The notes beneath the pieces are model-generated. The model had not been told where the DNA came from. It saw nothing but the letters and a program-made list of their open reading frames with translations, and did not search any database. Position numbers and translations under genes: made by a program. This document shows positions 10,201 through 63,881 of a stretch of 64,000 nucleotides of DNA, one piece after another (position 1 is the first letter of the stretch; each line of letters opens with the position of its first letter). Location of the stretch: the NCBI GenBank assembly GCA_030264375.1, contig JASCQW010000098.1, positions 52,096,901 through 52,160,900 on the forward strand, read 5' to 3'. Source of the DNA: Carcharhinus longimanus (taxonomy: Eukaryota).

Positions 10201-11408
10201 TGCACTCTCTACAGAACAGTAACAATTCCTCCTCACTTTCTGGTCCTTGGGCTCATTAATGCTCAGCATTTTACCAGCTGAATGAGCTTCTAACTCATTA
10301 ATTCAATCTTCTCAAGGAAGTGACTCTGTCCTGGCATGAACACAGATAGTTTAGAATGATAGAGTTTGTCCAAAAAAGGGCTGCTGTTCTTTTCAATATT
10401 CTTGTGGGTGTGCTTTCTGTTGCTCTAAAGGTGAAATTTTATTGATTAATTAATTAGCTGTGTTCTTTTTGAAGGCTGCCATTGAACTCAATTCTCTTTC
10501 TCCCACCAATGATAACCCAAGGCAGAGGCATATTACTTCATTGCAATGTTAATGTAAACCTACTTGTGGCACCAATAAATAAACTTTAAACTATTACTGC
10601 TCCTGAACTAACAGACATGGATGCTGGAGGGATGTCAGTGATGTTACACAACCAAAGAAGAATTCAGTCAGAGAAGAATTCAATCCAAGGGGCTTTATCT
10701 GGATGTTATTCACATTTAGGAAGGAGCTTGATGCTGTGAATAAGAACATTGCCTGAAAAAGGCACCAGAGATAGGTGAGAAGGAAATTCTTTAGACGGTG
10801 GTTTAGTGGAACACAGTAGAAATGTCCTAATTCGGATCAACAGGGGAAGTACAATCCAGAATGGGTCTGGAAAGGGATGTAGCTAAAGATAATTTTTAAA
10901 AGAAAATGCAAAAGGGCGCCAGAACGGAAGAATGATACTCTCCTCCTATGCTACATGTTTCTGTGATAAGGCAGAGAGATAAGCAATCAGTCTGGTACAT
11001 GAGACAGGGTAGATAAAACCGAGACAGCAAGGNNNNNNNNNNNNNNNNNNNNNNNNNNNNNNNNNNNNNNNNNNNNNNNNNNNNNNNNNNNNNNNNNNNN
11101 NNNNNNNNNNNNNNNNNNNNNNNNNNNNNNNNCTTTCTCCTGTTAACAATTGCAGCATTTCATGTAGGGTGAGGGAGGGTATAGATACAACTCAGCCAAC
11201 AGTCCAGAAAGAGGAGAAGCAGATCACAGATCCGGAGAAAGGGACTTTCTGTGAGTTACAACTCCAACAAGTGAAAGCCCCGAGAGGTTGCACTGACAGC
11301 AGAAAGGACTGCTGAAAGTGGAGTCTGGAAAGACTTGGTGTGAAGGTTGGACATTGTTACTGCTGAGCAGACATGTATCACATGTGTATGTCTTTTAATC
11401 TCCTGCAG

Positions 11409-11504
11409 TTGGTTCCTATAATAATTGCTTTGCGATGATTTTCACTGAGCGCTGCGCAACGGAATGGACTCTGCGAGTTTACAAAGAATGCGGATGGAAT
11501 GAAT
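11409..11504 (+). other. Candidate upstream exon, mostly 5'UTR, ending ATG AAT|gtgagc
   Basis: Acceptor tcttttaatctcctgcag| and donor AAT|GTGAGC. The ATG at 11499 is in frame with exon 11869. Confidence 0.35.
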
Positions 11505-11868
11505 GTGAGCGGCAGGGGAAAGAGAAAAAGAGAAAAGGAGAGAGTCAGAGTGAGGGATGGAGGGAGAAAGGGGAGAACAGAATGAACTGACAGGTAAACA
11601 GGCAAGCGGGAGATGCTCAGTACTTGTGATATTAGACAAGGCTTTGCAGAAATCTGAGAATAAATATACCTCAATAGGAAGTGGGCAGCTACTGGAGGGA
11701 AGGCTGGCAATGTGCAAACATGACATGAAACTGCATTCGAATTATAGTTGACAGTTGAATAAAGGCGTTAAGAAACCTTCTGGAATCAGGAGCAAAATCA
11801 TCATTTCGGATCGAAAAGTAGGATTTAAAAATATTGAAAGAACCAAAACAATCTTTCTATTTTCGCAG

Positions 11869-11959
11869 CTTGAGGAAGATGATGTGACTGAGGAGGACGT
11901 GGGCTTTACAGGCAACAAGACGGTGCTGGATTCATTCATTCTCCTGCTGTGTATCGCTG
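11869..11959 (+). CDS. Candidate exon (LEEDDVTEEDVGFTGNKTVLDSFILLLCIA-G), phase 0 to phase 1
   Basis: Strong acceptor tctttctattttcgcag| and strong donor CTG|GTAAGA. Open frame ends in a hydrophobic stretch and is in frame with 18135. Confidence 0.5.
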
Positions 11960-12380
11960 GTAAGAGCTCCCTTTAACACTTGTTGGCCACAGGGGTAACT
12001 GTCTTCAGGAGCTTTTCACTCCTGTCTACAGGACACATGAGTACCAAAATCTGAATTTATGTTCAGCGGTAAAGACAAGAAGCATTATCAGTGCTTAATG
12101 AGGCGCTGATTGGTTATAAAAGACTGTAAATTAACCTGGGTGGTGCTTTAGTGGTAACGTTACCAGATTAGTAATCGCTGAGACCCAGGCTAATGCCCTG
12201 GGAACATGGTACAGCTGATGGAATTTACATTTAATTGATAAATATTTAATATAAAGTTAGTTTGAGTAATAGCGAACACAAAATTGTCATTTTAAAAAAC
12301 CATCAGATTGACCAATGCCCTTTAGAGAAATTGTGGTCCTTATCTAGTCTGACTGCTACTCACAGCAACGTGTTGACTGA

Positions 12381-12464
12381 CTTGAGGAAGGAACAGTGCT
12401 CCGAAAGCTCATGATTTCAAATAAACCTGTTGGACTTTAACCTGGTGTTGTGAGACTTCTTACT
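12381..12464 (+). mobile_element. Penelope-type terminal repeat with a degenerate hammerhead core, nested in a SINE (about 12140-12540)
   Basis: TTGAGGA-aggaacagtgctcc-GAAAGCTC plus the same tail as 27061-27146; core position C3 is mutated. Confidence 0.65.
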
Positions 12465-14361
12465 ACAATGTGGTTAACTCTTAACTGCCCTCAGCCTAGC
12501 AAGCCACTCAAGGACAATTAAGGATGGACTACCAATGCTGACAGTAAGCAAAAATAACTTATACAGCAGATTGATTAGATGTATCAGGATTTTAAGGGGT
12601 ATTTCATTTGAGCATCTTATTTCATTTTTAACACCAAAACAAGCCCAGAAAGTAACTCTAAAGATTATTTGATGAAATTCTGGCATAGTGTTTTAACAGG
12701 AGTGACTAGCAAGGATTTTGGGCAGGCACCCAAAGTCCTGATGTGTGTTTATGGCAGTTTAATATCATTCCTCAGATGCTTGCATTCAGAAATGATTCCA
12801 TCTTGGATGTTGGTACAGCTATTACTAACATACATCTGAGCAGCAGATCACAACAAATCTAAAATAACATGCTGGATCGACCAGTAACCATCTGATTAAA
12901 CATGTTGGCACTGTAAATAATGCCAGGTTTATCAATCCATTTGAATGATCTAAAAAAGAGCAGAGATCCCAACAGATCTTTTCCATGGACGGTCTCTGCA
13001 GATCCTTCTAGAAACAATGAAATGCAATTTTCAGTAGTCTTGGAACAACAATTACTAAACATGGGGACCAGCAGGTGTTTCAAGTAAGAGGCAAATGACT
13101 TGACCACTTACACTTGGAGGGATGTGTGGAAAAAAGTGTCTAATTTTAAGGAAAAATATCAAACTATATAATAAATGCTACAAGGCATACATTGGTGTCA
13201 TAGTTACTGTAATCCAGAGTGGAGAGTCAATTAGCTCAGTTGGCTGGAAGGCTGGTTTGTGATGCAAAGTGCCACCAACAGTTGGGGGTTCAATTTCCCA
13301 TATTGGTTGAGATTGTTCATGAAGGCCCCACCTTCTCAACCTTGCTCCCTGTCTGAGGTGTGCTGAACCTCAGGTTAAAATCGCCACCAGTAAGCGGTCT
13401 CCCTTAAAGGCATGACTTTACCCTACTATAATCCAGAAACCTTCATCAGAGTTCAAAACCCGCCATGCAATTTGAGACAGTAAAATGTTCATGTTGCTGT
13501 TGGATTATTGGCAAACCCCAAGTGCCTTTTACGTGAGGAGACAGGCTGTTAAGATTATTCCATCCTGCATTTAACACATCAGCATGGTTCATTCCAGTGC
13601 CCCAGCAAATCATTCAGTTGTATCAAATTTCTACAAAGGTTTGCAGCGGTTCATGAAGCAGACCAATTTGAGATGTGCCACGAGTATCAAATATTCCTAG
13701 AAAATGCTATCCACCAAGTTGAAGAAACTTGCTCAAAATGTACATGAAAGAGATGTAAAATGTTATTGGAAAAATGTCACAAAGGGCTACTTCTAAGAGC
13801 TGAAGGAAAATGATTTTAGTCAAAGAAAGAACCGGCTAAATGAAACTTTGCCTTTGTTGGTGAGCAAGGTATTTCACATTAACTTCCACTAGACCTTATA
13901 ATTCTATCAGACCTTTCCTTCTCTACAAAAGAATCTCAAACAATGTGTACTGTTCTTTTCTTTGCAGAAAAAGATGACTTTCAATAAATGTAACCATGCA
14001 GCGATTGGTGATGGCACTCGATAGATAACCCCTATTTTTGTGACAAAGAGCCCATGGAAATTATAGGTTGGAATCTGATATTAGACACAGAGTATGCTGA
14101 AGTTTAAAGCGACAAAACATTCCTGGTTCGCACATTTATACGTTCGCTGTGCAAAATTTTTTTTAATCAGGCTGAAGGCATTTTTTGTGTTGCTCCATGG
14201 AACATCGTAGATAATGACACTGCTCAACAAATCTGTACCAAACAATTCCAATGTGCTTATCCCTGTGCTATATTTCTTTACAAAGAGGCCACAAATCCAG
14301 GAGGAAGAAATAGGTCCAGCAGGACTATCATGTGCACTTCATCACTCTGCATTATTCTCAG

Positions 14362-14404
14362 GTGATGCTATGTGTTCTTGTTGTCTTTTGGCTCCTGGAT
14401 GTTG
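14362..14404 (+). CDS. Candidate signal-peptide exon (MLCVLVVFWLLDV-G), phase 1
   Basis: Acceptor attattctcag|GTG, ATG at 14365, 13 mostly hydrophobic codons, donor G|GTAAAA. Joins in frame to 18135 to give an 89-aa protein. Confidence 0.45.
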
Positions 14405-15483
14405 GTAAAATCACACTTTTAGTAAAAGTGAGATCTGTTAATGTTTAATATTTGCCATGTTGCCTTGTATAAAAGAAGATCCAGTTTGAATTGGTTCTGT
14501 TATACATCACATGACTCTCCAGTGCAGCTGTGAAAAGTGGCCCTTGGAACACTTATGCTTAACAATTAGTTCCTAGCTCTTTACAGACACTTACTGATAA
14601 TACAATAAGTAACATCTCTCAGTCTTCAGAACACAATGTAGTTGTTCCAGTTACTAACTTCTGTAAACAAAAAAAAATTAACTTTTGGAAATTAACTGAA
14701 TGCCAACTTATAATCTTTTATAGCAGGTATTTTTTCGAAAAATATTATTCATGGTATTGCTTAGGTGGTAAGTTGATGGACAGAATTCTCAACCTTGTCC
14801 GTGGCTGGGATTTTCCAGTCCAGCTGCAGTGAAAGAAGATTTGGCTGAGGGTCAAATTGTCCATTCTCACTGACAATAGCAGCGTGCATAAGTTACCAGA
14901 GAATTCCAGCCAATGTTCTTCCAGCTTGCAACTCTGGCATTCATTGCTCTTAGTGGTAAGTTGGCATGCTGCACAGGCAATATTGTGCATGTTGTCCCTT
15001 GTGTTGCAGGAGTCACATGTGCTGTTGCTTAGATTGTGTCATTTACTGTCCATACTGTTAATGTTGTGTCCTTGGTCACTGATGTTTCTGATGTTGCTGA
15101 TGGTCCATTCTGTTTATTTCAGCTCAGTGTAGGTCAAATATGGACTCTGTTTCTTCTCACTTGTTTATAGTTTCAGTCTCAATTATGTATGAGCTTGGTG
15201 TGTCGGCTGCAGCAACAACTCTTGCTGGCTCCAGGTTTTCATGGATTCTTACATGCAGACTTTGTCCTTTCAAATGTTCAGTTTGAGATTAACCATGTTT
15301 GTTGAAGTGCTGATCACCGTTTTCTTGTGTTTCAATGAGTTGTGTTACGAAGTGGAGGGTAATCTCTCTGAGAACTAACACTCAACCACTCAAAGTACCT
15401 CCTTTTCATAATCATTCAAAGAGCATGTGAGAAATGGTACAATATGCCTACAGCAATACTTAGTGGTTAAATCAAGAACAATT

Positions 15484-16170
15484 ATAAGAACATAAGAACA
15501 TAAGAAATAGGAGCAGGAGTAGGCCATCTGGCCCTTCGAGCCTGCCCCGCCATTNNNNNNNNNNNNNNNNNNNNNNNNNNNNNNNNNNNNNNNNNNNNNN
15601 NNNNNNNNNNNNNNNNNNNNNNNNNNNNNNNNNNNNNNNNNNNNNNNNNNNNNNCCAGAACCAAGTCCAGTATAGCCCCCTCTCTGGTCGGGCTATCCAC
15701 ATACTGCTCCAGGGATCCTTCCATTACACACCGTACAAATTCCTCCCCGTCAGCACCCTCTGATCTCGGCACCTTTTCTCTGGAGTTTAGGTGACTTGAT
15801 TGAAGTAAATAAGATATAGAATGGTCTTGATGAGGTGGATGTGGAGAGGATGCTTCCTCTTATGGATGAGCTCAGAACTCAGAGCACGGTTTTAAAATTA
15901 GGAGTCACCCATTTTGGACAGAAGTGAGGAGAATTGTTTTCACTCAGAAGGTTGTGCGACTTGGGAACTCTGCCTCAGAAGGTGGTAGAGGCAGGGTCAC
16001 TGAATATTCTTAAGGCAGAAGTAGATAGCTTTGTGTTAGGGAAGGGAGTCAAAGGCTAAGGGAGGGTGGATAGAAACATTAAATTTGAAACACAAACAGA
16101 TCAGCCATGGTCCTATTAAAGGCAGAGCAGGCTCCAGACACCGAATGACCTACTTCTGCTCCTAATTTTT
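15484..16170. mobile_element. CR1 fragments (minus 15484-15770 across a gap, plus 15773-16170)
   Basis: Minus ORF contains LEQYVDSPTREGAILDLVL (CR1 APE); CR1 tails at both ends. Confidence 0.8.
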
Positions 16171-16237
16171 TTTGAATTCCTGGTTGTGCTTCTCAGGCCA
16201 CCCATGGATCACTTGTTGAGAGAAGATCTATAACTTG

Positions 16238-16537
16238 GCATGGTGGCACAGTGGTTAGCACTGCTGTCTCACACAGTGTCAGAGACCTGGGTTCAATTCT
16301 TGGTTTGGGTCACTGTCTGTGTGAAGTCTGCATGTTCTGCCCATGTCTGCGTGGGTTTCTTCTGGGTGGTCTGATTTCCTCCCAAAGTCTGAAAGATGTG
16401 CTGGTTAGGTGCATTGGCCATGCTAAATTCTCCCTCAGTGTACACAACAGGCGCCTGAGTGTGACGACTAGGGGATTTTCACAGTAACGTCATGCAGTGT
16501 TCGTGTAAGCCTACTTGTGATTTAATAAATAAATAAA
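16238..16537 (+). mobile_element. tRNA-derived V-SINE-like element
   Basis: Same head, core and tail; ends in (aata)n. Confidence 0.85.
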
Positions 16538-17711
16538 TACCTCATCGTTCCTGGCCTCATCTCTAATTTGACCCTGTTTCAATGGTGTTACATTCACTAG
16601 GTGATGGATTGTTTTACCTAAATTTTCCATGTTGTTTTTCTCATGTGGTGGTAACTGCGATAGGGTCTCTGTCAGCACCATTTCTCATCCTGGCTTGTAT
16701 TTCAGAGTGAAATTGAAATTGTGAGACCTCAGGCATTACCTCTATAGTCTTGTTGTTTTACACAGATTCCTCTTATAGATCTGCTCCAGTGGACAAAACT
16801 ACTTTCCACTATGAACTTTGTCCCAAAGAGATACGTGTGAAACTTCTCACATCCATGCACCACTATCAAAGCTCTCTTTCTATTTTGGCAAATCTGATCT
16901 CAGCTGAGGTTAGAGTTGCGGACATGAATGCTATTATTTTTCCCTCTTGGACCAGGGGCTGTTCCCAATCCTTTTGCAGAAGCATTCACTTGCAGAGTGA
17001 CAGTTTTCTTTCAGTTGTAGTATGATAGACTTGCAAATGCATTTAAATGGCCATTAGACCCATTTCGGATGTGGGCCCAATCGCGGCCATTTTTGGGCCT
17101 TGATAAAGGGGGAACTAGTCTGGAGGCGGGCTCGGATCACGCTACTTGCCTCATGCCTGACTTTACCAAGTTTTTGTGCCCGAAAATGGGCACAACCTGA
17201 TGGTAAAATCAGGCCCTATGTTTCTTTCTGTGTTTCTGTTAATATGTGTGGTTCTCATCATGTTTTGTTGAGAATATGTTCTCACAAACCTTGTACAAAT
17301 GGAAAAAGTCACTGCCAGAGCAGTAAGTATTAATAAAATAATTCCATTGGCTTTCCTTTCATTATTTGGCTACAAAATTTGGATGTGTCTATTTTTTTGG
17401 TGCCATTTTGACCCCAGGATGGTGTCTGTGATATTCAGGTGCTGGCTGTGCTGGGTGCCATTTTGTTGAGAATGTTAGCACATGGGCAGGGAGTGTCCAT
17501 TGGAGGTATGCGGAGAAGGCAGACTGTAACCTTAATTAACATGTAGCACTGATTTGACACCAACACTGCCATTTTAGAGTTCAGTGCTTCAGCTAACACC
17601 CTTCTAAATCTCATACAGCTGAATACACATTCAACAACAGGAAGGAGCTCTCTGGTATGTAATTATGCATCAAGCTAATAGCTTTAACTGGAGTTTATTA
17701 CAGAGATTTGC

Positions 17712-18006
17712 TTTATTTGATTTGATTTATTATTGTCACGAGTATTAATATACAGCAAAAGGTATTGTTTCTTGTGTGCTATACAGAAAAAGCATACCAT
17801 TCATAGAGAAGGAAAGGGGAGAGTGCAGATGTAGCATTACAGTCATAGCTAGAGCGTAGAAAAAGATCAACTGAATGCGAGGTAGGTCCATTTAGAAGTC
17901 TAATGGCAGCAGGGAAGAAGCTGTTCTTGAGTCGGTTGGTACGTGACCTCAGACTTTTGTATGTTTTTCCTGACGGAAGAAGGTGGAAGAGAGAATATCC
18001 AGAGTG
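17712..18006 (-). mobile_element. Non-LTR retrotransposon 3' end (Rex/Babar-like)
   Basis: H.GYSLFHLLPSGKTYKSLRSRTNRLKNSFFPAAIRLLN followed by an (aaatc)n-type tail. Confidence 0.7.
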
Positions 18007-18134
18007 CATACACATCCAAGGATAATACAGAATGGAATCTTCTGGACATAAGACAGATCACATTATCAAACTGACCTCAATTCACTTACCCTATTTTAAA
18101 TAATTTCATCATTTATGTTTTTTTTTATATCTAG

Positions 18135-18364
18135 GATACAACATTGAATCAACAACCTTTTCACCGGCTAAAGGATTAAGTTTCATTACTGAAGATACAA
18201 TGTCTCCTGCATTTGGGGCAACAATTATCATCATTGTTACTGTTTTAATATCAGGAAGTGCTTACCTGTATTTCTTGAAGTACATTTGCTCGGGGTGTTG
18301 TAGAAACACACAGGTTGTTCCTGCAGTGAGATTAGACCCAAGCAAATCGGAAGAGCAAGTATGA
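18135..18364 (+). CDS. Terminal coding exon of an unidentified small single-pass membrane protein
   Basis: Acceptor tttttttatatctag|GA. Open frame (G)YNIESTTFSPAKGLSFITEDTMSPAFGATIIIIVTVLISGSAYLYFLKYICSGCCRNTQVVPAVRLDPSKSEEQV*, with an S/T-rich stalk, a TM of about 23 aa, a Lys stop-transfer residue and a Cys cluster. AATAAA at 18649 and 18739, with a GT-rich tract at about 18826-18851. Confidence 0.6.
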
Positions 18365-18961
18365 ATATTTTATACACCAGAGAACAGCTAACTGTGACAT
18401 GGAACCTCATTATTACCTCTCCTCTGGAGCTGATTTGTAAGGAATGATTTGAAAGGTGTGACATTGAGAAGCATAGTTCTCATCGACACAAGTGTGACAG
18501 ATGAAAGATATAAATTATACAGACCAGTTGTGACCAATTCAGCTTTTAGGTTGCACTTGTAGTATGTCAAAGCATACTGACTTTCAGATTCAAGACGCCA
18601 ACTTGGGTTGTTCTATTTAGCAAGTGGAACAAAACATCTATATCAGAGAATAAAACAAAGACATGGACTAATCTAGATTCTAGATCAGCATGCTCTGTGG
18701 TCTTCCCAATAATACTGAGAAAACAAATGGCTTCTGTAAATAAAAAAATCGAGGTGGAAAAGTTAGATTAAAAAAATGAAAAAAATTACTTATGACCCAA
18801 AAAGTTACAGACTGTTTGAAACATATTGTTTGTGTTTTTGTGTTTTTTGTGAATCATGGATCTTTCAGCACAGAAGAGGGCCATTCTGCTTGCTGTGCCT
18901 GTATCACCTGCCAGATTAGGCTCACAGCCCAGCCTTTTCCTCATAACACTGAAAAATAGTA

Positions 18962-19205
18962 GGGCGGCACAGTGGTTAGTACTGCTGCCTTACAGCACCA
19001 GGGATCCAGGTTCAATTCTGGCTTGGGTCACTTTCTGTGTGGAGTTTGCACATTCTCCTCCATGTCTCTTCTGGTTTCCTCTCACAGTCTGAAAGATGTG
19101 CTGGTTAGATGCAATGACGCAAACAGGCACTGGATTGTGGCACTAGGGGAATTTTACAGTAACTTCTTTGCAGTGTTAATGTGACTCGTAAATAAGCCTT
19201 TAACT
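18962..19205 (+). mobile_element. tRNA-derived V-SINE-like element
   Basis: Same family with internal deletions. Confidence 0.8.
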
Positions 19206-41293: not shown

Positions 41294-42412
41294 TCATCCA
41301 TCTCTACAATCAGCATAATTTCCTTTGATCCAGAAACAAATCTGTGCATATTTCAGAGGGGTGATGCGAACCGCCACATTGTAATCCTGCTGCATACCAT
41401 TCTTATCCACCCATTGGTGTCCTGAAAATATTCCAATCACTTTTCGCTCCCATTTCCGACTGTGCCTTTTCCACATTCGGATGTAAACACCTGAGCCACT
41501 GGCTCCTGGCTGAGCATCACAGTGCTGATACAGGAGGTCAGAGGTTTCATCTTTAACCAAGCAGAAACGATAGACGAGATCTCCTGGTCGATCATTGTCA
41601 AATCCAGAAAAGTGAATCCTGCCACCAGGCAGTCTTCCCAGAGGAGGAGTAATTCCTATTTTCATGAAGGGTTTCTTGTGAGGTCTTTTTAGTTCCAGAA
41701 GTGCGTAGTCATAATCCATGCCAATATCGTTTGCTGAACCTTTAATCCATCCTTTTGGAACATGTGTCCGCTTTACTCGTATCCAATGGAACCTAGGTTT
41801 TTCTGGAGAAAGGAAGCTGGATTTATTCGTGGCTTTCCCAGTCTCCTTTTGTTTTGGTTTAAAAAATCCAACTTTCATCTTTTGGGCACCCTTCACATAG
41901 TTCTTGCCATCATGAATACAGTGAGCAGCAGTTAGGACATGCTTCTCAGCTACTAAAGTTCCAGTGCAACCTGTGGAGATTTTCACGGATGTTGAGAAAG
42001 GATAGTTGAATAGAAAGTTTTTTGCCAAGATGCTGAATCGGCCATCCAGGCCAAAGATTTGCCTTTTTGCTCTTCGACCACTCCCGTGATTCTGTTGGTT
42101 TATCAAATCGGCAGCATTGAAGCCATAGATGTCCACATTTGTGAGAGTCCTACTTCCGTTTAGGTATAGAGTTTCATAAGACAAATATTCTTTTAGGTCT
42201 TCGTATGTTGGTAGAGGTGCTCTTTTGTGGCACTCTAATTCACACGGAGATGTTACTTCTAGCTTTGCTTTGCCTTTAAAATGCGCTGTCTCCAGTGCCA
42301 CAGTCTCTTGAGGCAAAACAGCAGGTATGTAAGTTTTCTGCCATTCTGCCTTAAGCATTATCACATGCTTAATGGAACAAAGAAAAATGACTAGTGCTGG
42401 CGCTGTTACCAT
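41294..42412 (-). CDS. PRSS23: Serine protease 23 (trypsin-like S1 family), single coding exon, 372 aa
   Basis: Translation matches vertebrate PRSS23 as I recall it: LSYETLY, furin site RRAKR|QIFG, YPFSTSVK, catalytic His TAAHC, Asp DYALLEL, Ser GASGS, C-terminus YAQICFWIKGNYADCRDG. The likely start is Met37 of the 408-aa ORF (ctcaccATGg, strong Kozak), followed by the hydrophobic signal MVTAPALVIFLCSI. Confidence 0.96.
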   Translation of the reverse strand: MVTAPALVIFLCSIKHVIMLKAEWQKTYIPAVLPQETVALETAHFKGKAKLEVTSPCELECHKRAPLPTYEDLKEYLSYETLYLNGSRTLTNVDIYGFNAADLINQQNHGSGRRAKRQIFGLDGRFSILAKNFLFNYPFSTSVKISTGCTGTLVAEKHVLTAAHCIHDGKNYVKGAQKMKVGFFKPKQKETGKATNKSSFLSPEKPRFHWIRVKRTHVPKGWIKGSANDIGMDYDYALLELKRPHKKPFMKIGITPPLGRLPGGRIHFSGFDNDRPGDLVYRFCLVKDETSDLLYQHCDAQPGASGSGVYIRMWKRHSRKWERKVIGIFSGHQWVDKNGMQQDYNVAVRITPLKYAQICFWIKGNYADCRDG

Positions 42413-42428
42413 GGTGAGTGGCGATTTG

Positions 42429-42457
42429 CTGTTGAAAAAAAAGACTTTGGTTAGTGC
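42429..42457 (-). promoter_or_regulatory. PRSS23: Splice acceptor of the PRSS23 coding exon (branch point, polypyrimidine tract, AG)
   Basis: Minus strand reads CACTAAC-caaagtc-TTTTTTTTCAACAG|caaatcgccactcaccATG. The exon starts at 42428, 16 nt before the ATG. Confidence 0.85.
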
Positions 42458-42589
42458 TTTTAATAACTTCATTTCCTTGCGCCAGCTCCAAAAATTAACT
42501 CCTAAAGTGATAACATTCATGAAATACTAATGTGACAGCTGGATAGCACCACACTCTGCTGATTGTTAATGCAAGTTCTCTTTCTGCAT

Positions 42590-61475: not shown

Positions 61476-63317
61476 TCAATATGTGGAGCAGCATTTCGTA
61501 AACATTTCACTTCAGTCATGAGCCAGTGTAACACGATTTCACTGTCAATATTGTTCTTGTGTTATCAGATTTTTGAGGCTGTCTCTGTCAGTTTGAAGCA
61601 ACTGGTCGGATTTTCCTAATATTCTGAGATGGCAGGTATTCGCTAAACATCTCAGCTTTCCCAACCACCACTACACTTGTACTTTACTCCAGTTCTTCTC
61701 ATAGAAGGATAAAGCACAGATGGGGAATATTAAACCATCATGCCTGGGCTCGGAATTATCCAATTTGTTCCATCCTCTGCAGCAAATACAAGTATAAATC
61801 CACTTGCCCTTTGAAACTTACTGTTGAATCACCTTCACTGTCCAATCAGACAAAACGTCCCAGATTATAACCATTTACTGTGTAAAAATAATTCACCACA
61901 TCGCCCCCGGCCTTTTTTCAGAAATTTTTGAGCTGAGTACTTAGGCGACAGACCCACTGCAGTGGAAACAGTTTCTCATTATCTAAGCTATCAAAATTCT
62001 TCATCACTTTGAATTATTGGTAATAAAATCTCCGAAATATCCTTCAAAAGGAGAACAATTCATCTTGCCACTGAGCTGAGGCCATGGAGATAGTGATGGC
62101 AATTTATGACAAATTACAGACACAGTTTGGTCTGGTCAGAGCTGAACCCAGATCTAGGTGGTGGGATGAGCAACGAAAACTGGGTAACCACAACAAAGCA
62201 ACCTCTGAATCAATGAGCTCAGGATCAGAAAGTGGAATCAACCAGGGCTGTCAGCGCTTCAGAAAGTGGCAAAAGATTAACACAATTTTTTCTGTAGTTC
62301 GAAACAATCACACTATATTGTCACCATCACACGTGTAAAAGGAAGTGATTACCCTGACGTGATATGAAAAAGAAATGTTTTGAAAGCTGAACAGATTTTT
62401 CAGTGATCGAAACTGACTGCGAAATGGAAAATTGTGATGGGGGAGCTCCAGTGGTCACATCTAAGCTCTATTCTTCTGTGGAAGCGGGTTCCCTTTTAGG
62501 GGCGAGTCCCACTCGTCTCTGGCTGGTCACGTACAGCATTTCGCGGCAGTTCTGCACTTGCCCAGGTGGGAAGAGAATGAACCGAGTGCCCTCACTGACA
62601 GGTCACCAAACAAATTACACCAACAGCCAAGAGCTGGAGGAAGGAGTGGAGGAAATGGACTTCTATCTCATTTAAGAACATCGATTTATGATCTTCTATC
62701 AGAGGAAGGTCTCCTGCAGTCTAGGGCAGCTCCCTTACCAGCTGGTACCTTCATCTTAGTTGCATTCAAACCTCACCCTTCAAAGACCCCCTGTGTATAA
62801 AACGAGCAACCCACTCTAACTCCTGGCAAACTGCACCACGTGCTTTCTCTCTACATTCAGCATAACTGAGTGTAATAGAATGGAAATAGTTAATTCTCAG
62901 TGAGATTTACCGAGCATGAACAGCACAATTATAGAATAGAAACACTCAGTCTCTCGATCTTTACCTCACCCTAACCCCGGGAATGTGAGACCTGCCTCAC
63001 AGAAGGGGGCACATTGTAGATTAATCGCTTCAGAATTGTAACTAAAACATATTTAAAATTCGGCTATCCAACGCTGCGCCTTCAAACTGCCAGAAAAGGG
63101 ACGTCAGGTCGTTCTATTTTATCACAAATTGCGGTATTTTTCCAGTTTATTTATCAATACTAACTTTCTTTTGCGACTGTGTAAGTAAAAATCAAAAATG
63201 GTTTAAGAAGTTGCTGTTACTGCAACTTTACTGCAGCTCTTTTCCACACGCCCCTCTTGAATTAATACAAAAAAAACTAAAGGGACTAAATCCAGAAGCT
63301 GATATCAGAAAGCTCAC

Positions 63318-63482
63318 CTCCCGCTCCAGGAGTCTGTTCACACTGTGGTATAACTGCTGCTATTGTTCAGTCAGAGGCTGGCAGGTGCACAGACCTTCAT
63401 TCTCTCCTCTCTGCCCCTGTAATATTCCCAGCCGGGATGTTTAGCTCTTTTTATGCAGCTCGGGGAATCCGGGCCTTTTATA
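63318..63482 (-). promoter_or_regulatory. PRSS23: Candidate PRSS23 core promoter and non-coding exon 1
   Basis: Minus-strand TATAAAAG at 63475-63482 and donor GGGAG|GTGAGC (GT at 63317-63316). The surroundings are CpG-enriched and repeat-free. This implies an intron of about 20.9 kb to the 42429 acceptor. Confidence 0.5.
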
Positions 63483-63881
63483 TCCCATCAATATGAATTG
63501 GCCCGTTTTATTTACCCCTTGGAGGGATGTTTGTTTTCGTGTCGCTGTGAGAACTGCTCTGCACAGCTGTCAGCACCTCTGCGCACCAACCCCTCGGCAG
63601 AAGTTCCTGGGAAAGTGCCTTTTCCTTTCCTGAACTTGCTCTCTCACTCTCGCCGTGCTGTGCTTGGTTATCACGTGGCTCCTGGCAACGCCCACATCAG
63701 AGACCATCTCACCGAACAAATCGAGTAAAATAACTCTAATGTGGCAGTGTGTATCATACAGGCTCTCCAAATGTTTCATTAATAAATCGATTTTCAGCAC
63801 TTGGATCATCCCCAGTTGTTTGCAGATCCAGTTAAAAATGCAATGTGTTTTAATAATACTTAGTAAAGAAAGCTGGTCAGA

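Follow-up and report, generated by a model that had tools for sequence, protein, structure and literature searches.

Among small membrane proteins that serve larger ones, MAP17 (PDZK1IP1) is single-pass and has a PDZ-binding C-terminus; it is needed for SGLT2, and its last three residues bind PDZK1 (PMC13465602). Another single-pass protein with a signal peptide, c-Answer, is reported in PMC6871517 to have been kept in cold-blooded vertebrates and lost in warm-blooded ones. Here we describe a gene that invites comparison with both, located in a stretch of 64,000 nucleotides from Carcharhinus longimanus (assembly GCA_030264375.1, contig JASCQW010000098.1, positions 52,096,901 to 52,160,900 of the forward strand; hereafter the window). 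The gene is predicted to encode a conserved vertebrate membrane microprotein of roughly 90–110 residues. What is new is a member of a family known from automatic predictions only; the kind of protein is itself familiar, and this, together with the existing automatic gene models, limits the surprise. The interest lies in a strongly conserved vertebrate membrane microprotein that lacks a family model, since a protein of similar layout often proves to be the missing subunit of a transporter or channel.

A last coding exon conserved among vertebrates

The original prediction, made from the letters of the window, had proposed that a small type I membrane protein of unrecognised family is encoded by a hidden spliced gene, and homologue, Pfam and solved-structure sequence searches all upheld this. 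The family is carried by one feature:

18135–18364, + strand: conserved final coding exon, made up of a split codon, 75 codons and a stop, placed by homologue searches, the start of tblastn alignments and the acceptor score

The 75-codon frame (18137–18361) is open throughout, the acceptor ranks 37th among 1158 AG sites, and the exon is single copy in the window and lies outside the repeats detected by self-BLAST. When the exon alone was searched against 5.8 billion proteins, all 11 candidates matched with E values of 4e-25 to 9e-19. Profile searches with the exon family yielded 66 and 71 proteins, each among 8000 candidates scored; the source is named for 34 of the 71 (27 teleosts, Xenopus tropicalis, four squamates and two turtles), and the remaining 37 are assembly records without a species name. 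An exhaustive phmmer search over 1.84 billion representatives gave 18 matches, 14 of them already in the profile or first-search lists; three of the four additional matches were weak and to long repetitive proteins. No diverged paralogue family surfaced in the profile and exhaustive phmmer searches.

Over a 64-residue core the window shares 61–75% identity, without gaps and with a common end column, with 29 full-length named relatives (omitting five models that were truncated, extended, chimeric or duplicates), and 22 of the 64 columns are invariant in this set. Core substitutions are milder than those of a neutral simulation (mean BLOSUM score 0.03 versus −0.55, standard deviation 0.35 per run), a margin that is modest taken alone; a stop was acquired in 75% of the neutral runs at the same divergence. 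In a tree of the window and 31 named proteins, the window forms a long branch with the tetrapods (96/92), separate from all teleosts. The gene is old in vertebrates and is single copy in most of the sampled species.

The suggestion that the protein might be lineage-restricted is thus refuted by the named relatives in teleosts, Xenopus, squamates and turtles. That it was unannotated is true only in part: none of its models is functionally named and no named cartilaginous-fish record turned up, but automatic models of the same family exist, for example X. tropicalis LOC100497538 (XP_002936588.2), Anolis LOC103278447, Podarcis LOC114595446 and Chaetodon LOC143330528, which have in common with the window the above core identity, the end column and an inferred phase-1 intron. 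A literature search by identifiers, peptide motifs, synteny, loss and microprotein terms, with most subscription journals outside its reach, found nothing on the gene, and the Xenopus identifier was absent from the supplement files of PMC10416458 and PMC6871517 in a term search.

Several individual records are peculiar. The eel Synaphobranchus kaupii has two copies (P0008 and P0055) with distant locus tags, possibly kept from the teleost genome duplication. Solea senegalensis has a second model, P0076, in which a retrotransposon-gag-like stretch (E 0.028) runs into the conserved exon at the junction used by the other relatives. Record P0045, labelled ‘Mustela’, was rejected as a mammalian member: its first cluster name is Oreochromis niloticus and it groups with perch-like fishes and cods (100/100), so that the ferret label seems to be a database error. 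The 99-residue protein P0034 of Varanus komodoensis bears the source label ‘Adhesion G protein-coupled receptor E1’ and looks mis-annotated; no such Pfam domain was found in it.

Intron position and candidate first coding exons

The conserved exon starts where the signal peptide of the relatives is predicted to be cut. Alignments of the Varanus and Podarcis proteins by tblastn begin at 18134, i.e. at the acceptor, and relatives’ models with differing predicted N-termini converge at this junction; the residue that precedes it is C, S or G (cods, sole, gecko), as would be expected if a downstream exon beginning with G completed the split codon. A phase-1 intron at the boundary between leader and mature protein is therefore probably conserved in the family, judging from the relatives’ protein models. 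Upstream of the junction the relatives, automatic models included, have leaders of mostly 22–27 residues with a hydrophobic core and a junction residue of G, A, C, S or D, versus 14–15 residues in the two ATG-bearing candidates of the window. Three candidate first exons, all of phase 1 and all ending in G, are present:

11869–11959, + strand: best-scoring upstream exon, 91 nucleotides, with a phase-1 end and a hydrophobic leader-like frame (splice, leader-profile and enhancer scores)
14362–14404, + strand: exon of the original prediction, with ATG at 14365 and a 14-codon hydrophobic leader (good acceptor, weak donor)
14913–14955, + strand: third candidate, with ATG and a 15-codon hydrophobic leader (strong donor, no good acceptor, weak start context)

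Splice scores were taken from approximate frequency tables and not from a trained model, and are good for ranking only. By these, exon 11869–11959 has the 8th of 957 donors and the 23rd of 1158 acceptors; it ranks first of 280 by leader profile and donor combined and first of 500 by donor, acceptor and hydrophobicity, with one of 2842 null sites as good. It contains purine-rich enhancer-like words (top 0.6% of the segments scored) and lies in a CpG-enriched setting. It lacks an in-frame ATG; the ACG at 11920 stands in a strong start context, with A at −3 and G at +4, and an out-of-frame ATG-ATG-TGA is found near the 5′ end. The exon either codes for the leader or is a 5′ untranslated region (UTR).

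For exon 14362–14404, which had been put forward as the coding first exon, the described splice sites exist (GT at 14405 and AG at 18133–18134, both phase 1), and joining 14365–14404 to 18135–18364 gives 270 nucleotides with a sole stop at codon 90, and so a protein of 89 residues. With its ATG, its good acceptor and the most hydrophobic core of the three it is plausible, but its donor is weak (151st of 957 GT sites) and it stands unconfirmed as one of three candidates. By leader profile and donor it ranks 20th of 280, about four equally good Met-bearing exons being expected per 18 kb; once the acceptor is counted it is third of 500, and none of the 2842 null sites is both Met-bearing and equal to it. 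Exon 14913–14955 is second of 280 and fourth of 500 on the same two rankings. The profile of relatives’ leaders, which scores the relatives themselves at a median of 12.1 (range −1.5 to 16.0), gives 4.2 for 11869–11959, −3.5 for 14362–14404 and 3.1 for 14913–14955, and tblastn of 25 relatives detected no homology to any of the three. A transcript in which both 11869–11959 and 14362–14404 are coding was rejected: when the two are chained with the last exon, the frame of 11869–11959 runs for 48 codons and then meets a stop.

Exon 11869–11959 is our provisional choice as first coding exon, with a probability somewhat short of even. That 14362–14404 fills this role, with 11869–11959 as 5′ UTR, is doubtful; a first coding exon elsewhere is rather unlikely, assembly gaps at 11033–11132 and 15555–15654 being places that could conceal it, and 14913–14955 is the least probable of the four.

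An absent in-frame ATG in the best upstream exon is also what would be seen if the family were real and its copy in the window were decaying after loss of the start codon. Leader scores of 4.2 or less in all three candidates point the same way, as does a Tyr at exon residue 45 in place of the Cys present in 31 of 32 alignment rows. Yet the frame is open with its length and stop unchanged, the substitutions are milder than neutral at a divergence where most neutral runs gain a stop, the relatives themselves retain hydrophobic leaders of unrelated sequence, and the two ATG-bearing candidates or the two assembly gaps could provide a leader. We consider such decay, or a conserved block that is non-coding, highly unlikely.

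Layout of the predicted protein

The protein has a predicted type I layout, in which a leader cut at the exon junction is followed by a short disordered stalk, an outer helix, a transmembrane helix, a cluster of cysteines and a terminal E-E-Q-V. With residues in exon numbering and conservation counted over 32 alignment rows, its elements are:

18170–18205, + strand: short helix immediately outside the membrane, residues 12–23 of the exon, ending at an invariant Ser-Pro break (column counts; helix 43–50 of the Xenopus AlphaFold2 model)
18206–18283, + strand: transmembrane helix, exon residues 24–49 (hydropathy; column counts; helix 53–83 of the Xenopus model)
18287–18301, + strand: juxtamembrane C-x-x-C-C cluster (C51, C54 and C55 in 32 of 32 rows)
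18350–18361, + strand: C-terminal E-E-Q-V (E-E-Q/H-V end in 30 of 32 rows)

Residues S23, P24, F26, A28, T29, I32, T35, S39, S41, Y43, F46, Y49, C51, C54, C55 and Q59 are invariant; 12 of them lie within the 27 columns that span residues 23–49. The transmembrane helix (best 19-residue hydropathy 2.15, from residue 29) thus holds invariant polar or aromatic residues at T29, T35, S39, S41, Y43, F46 and Y49, and the polar T, S and Y among them suggest more than a plain lipid anchor. When a conserved face was sought on this helix, variability did not follow a helical period (100-degree moment, p 0.44), as would suit a helix with several of its sides buried. The stalk of the relatives is rich in S, T, P and G and variable in both length and sequence. 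The length of the tail is fixed, and the two rows that lack the E-E-Q/H-V end are a truncated and an extended model. The AlphaFold2 model of the Xenopus protein (mean predicted local distance difference test score, pLDDT, 67) consists of helices 3–28, 43–50 and 53–83 only, with no catalytic or folded ligand-binding domain. The C-x-x-C-C cluster is likely to be palmitoylated, and the E-E-Q-V end may act as a C-terminal valine export signal, as a non-class-I PDZ ligand, or as both.

The open reading frame (ORF) that begins at the internal Met, 18200–18364, has 54 residues, as had been claimed; an internal start at this Met was rejected as a family feature, Val being present there in 28 of the 32 rows. 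The aberrant Tyr at exon residue 45 (18269–18271, + strand) may be a lineage change, a variant or a sequencing error.

Comparison with known families

Pfam holds no family for the exon, and none reached the cut-off for any of 30 members with matches listed to E 10; with 7 and with 30 members there were scattered weak matches (best E 0.011, at most two members per family), HMMER filters discarding most matches above E 0.1. Sequence searches of solved structures gave no match, and the profile found a single chance match among PDB sequences (E 0.84). Structural comparison with the Xenopus model was uninformative, both in Foldseek (best E 6.2) and in VIA-align (best Z 6.0, root-mean-square deviation 6.8 over 84 residues, generic long helices).

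MAP17 may serve as the closest working analogy, being likewise small and single-pass, with a PDZ-binding C-terminus and a role in the service of larger membrane proteins (PMC13465602). The microprotein differs from it in its acidic E-E-Q-V end and its C-x-x-C-C cluster, and neither the Pfam models (30 members) nor the PDB chains gave a match to MAP17/PDZK1IP1-SMIM24. Both of these sequence libraries include MAP17. TMEM213, TMIE and SMIM5/18/22 are similar in their short single-pass size and layout, with ESM Atlas feature scores of 0.86–0.88; Atlas scores here were all below 0.9 and are leads only. The corresponding Pfam models (PF15192, PF16038 and PF15831) were unmatched in all 30 members, and the three-helix Xenopus model, at its mean pLDDT, cannot separate these families. 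The F-x-Y-D motif that precedes the helix of FXYD proteins is absent from the alignment, and Pfam gave no match to that family. DAP10, DAP12 and FcR-gamma are set apart by an acidic residue in the helix and a tyrosine signalling motif in the tail, neither of which occurs in our alignment; the Atlas score for DAP10 was 0.84.

Possible function

Selection appears to act on the transmembrane helix, the cysteines and the last four residues and not on the ectodomain, and we therefore infer, at a confidence that approaches even without reaching it, that the microprotein is a palmitoylated accessory subunit, bound through its helix to a transporter, channel or receptor and steered by its C-terminal valine or PDZ-type tail, in the manner of MAP17. 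The upstream exon would encode a signal peptide that is removed at the exon junction, and the helix would pack within the membrane against this larger partner. Cysteine-bound palmitates would stabilise the complex, the tail would drive its export from the endoplasmic reticulum (ER) or tether it to a scaffold, and the microprotein would thereby set the surface level or activity of the partner, as MAP17 does for SGLT2. PMC11470877 describes a C-terminal valine as an ER-export signal in CD8, Kit ligand and HLA-F, as a ligand of GRASP PDZ domains, and as the end of about 10% of human type I proteins.

Several points weigh against such a subunit. Pfam and solved-structure sequence searches gave no sequence link to any accessory-subunit family. 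Conservation on all faces of the helix would fit a homo-oligomer or a protease substrate as well. Class I PDZ ligands have Ser or Thr at position −2, and the tail has neither there. A homodimer prediction (score 0.02, verdict ‘no answer’) is evidence neither way.

The protein could instead act on its own, as a mini-glycoprotein or raft adaptor. It would then form a homo-oligomer that anchors scaffolds at junctions by means of palmitoylated cysteines and a PDZ-type tail, for which SMAGP and glycophorin C are models. The S/T/P/G-rich stalk, the invariant cysteines and the fixed C-terminus would suit this role, and small residues spaced along the helix could allow helix–helix packing. On the other hand, there is beyond residue 49 neither a signalling tyrosine nor a basic cluster of the protein-4.1-binding type, and the helix seems conserved beyond the usual need of such anchors; we regard this role as doubtful. 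It is improbable that the protein is a membrane-bound precursor whose stalk is shed and whose helix is cut within the membrane, so that the conserved outer helix or the tail is released as a signal. The helix contains an S-G-S-A stretch and is preceded by the invariant Ser-Pro break, both of which resemble helix-destabilising features of intramembrane-protease substrates, and the short outer helix is conserved; against this, a dibasic cleavage site is lacking, the stalk shows little conservation and palmitoylated cysteines would keep the tail at the membrane. The accessory subunit remains our preferred reading.

Taxonomic range

Among the matches listed, none of the 34 named relatives is a bird or mammal protein (37 further matches are nameless), and the named relatives likewise include no crocodilian, cartilaginous fish, non-teleost bony fish or carp. 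This suggests loss in warm-blooded animals as a lead, not as a result. A further, speculative reading, possible but with the balance clearly against it, is that of an ancient jawed-vertebrate accessory subunit, 60–75% identical from cartilaginous fish to lizards and turtles and lost independently in birds and mammals, which tunes a channel, transporter or receptor for a cold-blooded trait such as temperature compensation, chromatophores or regeneration, perhaps with an ACG start here. If so, it was overlooked by annotation-dependent screens such as that which yielded c-Answer, and, should its absence from birds and mammals be borne out, the gene would join a short list of those linked to cold-blooded physiology. 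The microprotein would share with c-Answer the single pass, the signal peptide and the range, but c-Answer has two immunoglobulin-like domains and the microprotein none; the descriptions of the nine genes listed by that screen do not fit the microprotein (PMC6871517).

Flanking sequence and neighbouring genes

Features on either side of the coding exons are:

11251–12000, + strand: CpG-enriched stretch, 17 CpG in 750 nucleotides (window mean 7.4, standard deviation 4.0), with a donor after 11593 (CpG count, donor score)
18365–18851, + strand: probable 3′ UTR, with AATAAA at 18649 and 18739, ATTAAA at 18767 and a GT-rich tract at about 18826–18851 (motif search)
41294–42526, − strand: convergent trypsin-family serine protease ORF of 410 codons (ORF list, family match)

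The two AATAAA signals and the GT-rich tract had been claimed and are present; two AATAAA against 0.85 expected by composition is not significant alone, and the 3′ signals are consistent with a gene end. The stretch 11251–12000, directly downstream of the assembly gap at 11033–11132, is a possible promoter and first exon.

Convergence with a protease gene also holds, the ORF at 41294–42526, which we take to be PRSS23, lying on the minus strand. FZD4 is absent from the window, in which no ORF is of Frizzled size and the longest gap-free ORF besides the protease has 177 codons. The original prediction had hinted at this gene as a neighbour, and the microprotein might accordingly be a modulator of Frizzled-4/Wnt or Norrin signalling that is co-regulated with FZD4. 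Human patients in whom ME3, PRSS23 and TMEM135 are deleted together with FZD4 are described in PMC8306649, and Frizzled-4, likewise valine-ended, uses GRASP65 (PMC11470877). Adjacency is not function, however, and FZD4 lies outside the window. The only neighbour clue from another species, a model of the catfish Clarias magur (P0026) that fuses the family’s N-terminal part to the start of TMEM50B (Pfam UPF0220, E 0.13), implies that TMEM50B lies just downstream of the family gene there, on the same strand, and so a different downstream neighbour. A role in Frizzled-4 signalling is accordingly very improbable.

The protease ORF has three in-frame Met codons ahead of its hydrophobic leader. The most CpG-rich stretch of the window, 62001–63750, with up to 24 CpG per 750 nucleotides, is a possible promoter, either for the protease gene or for a divergently oriented neighbour. 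Rfam gave no match in the window. Interspersed repeats that recur elsewhere in the window are present in the introns and immediately beyond the 3′ end of the gene, at 12374–12540, 15487–15554, 15912–16164, 16235–16533 and 18948–19182.

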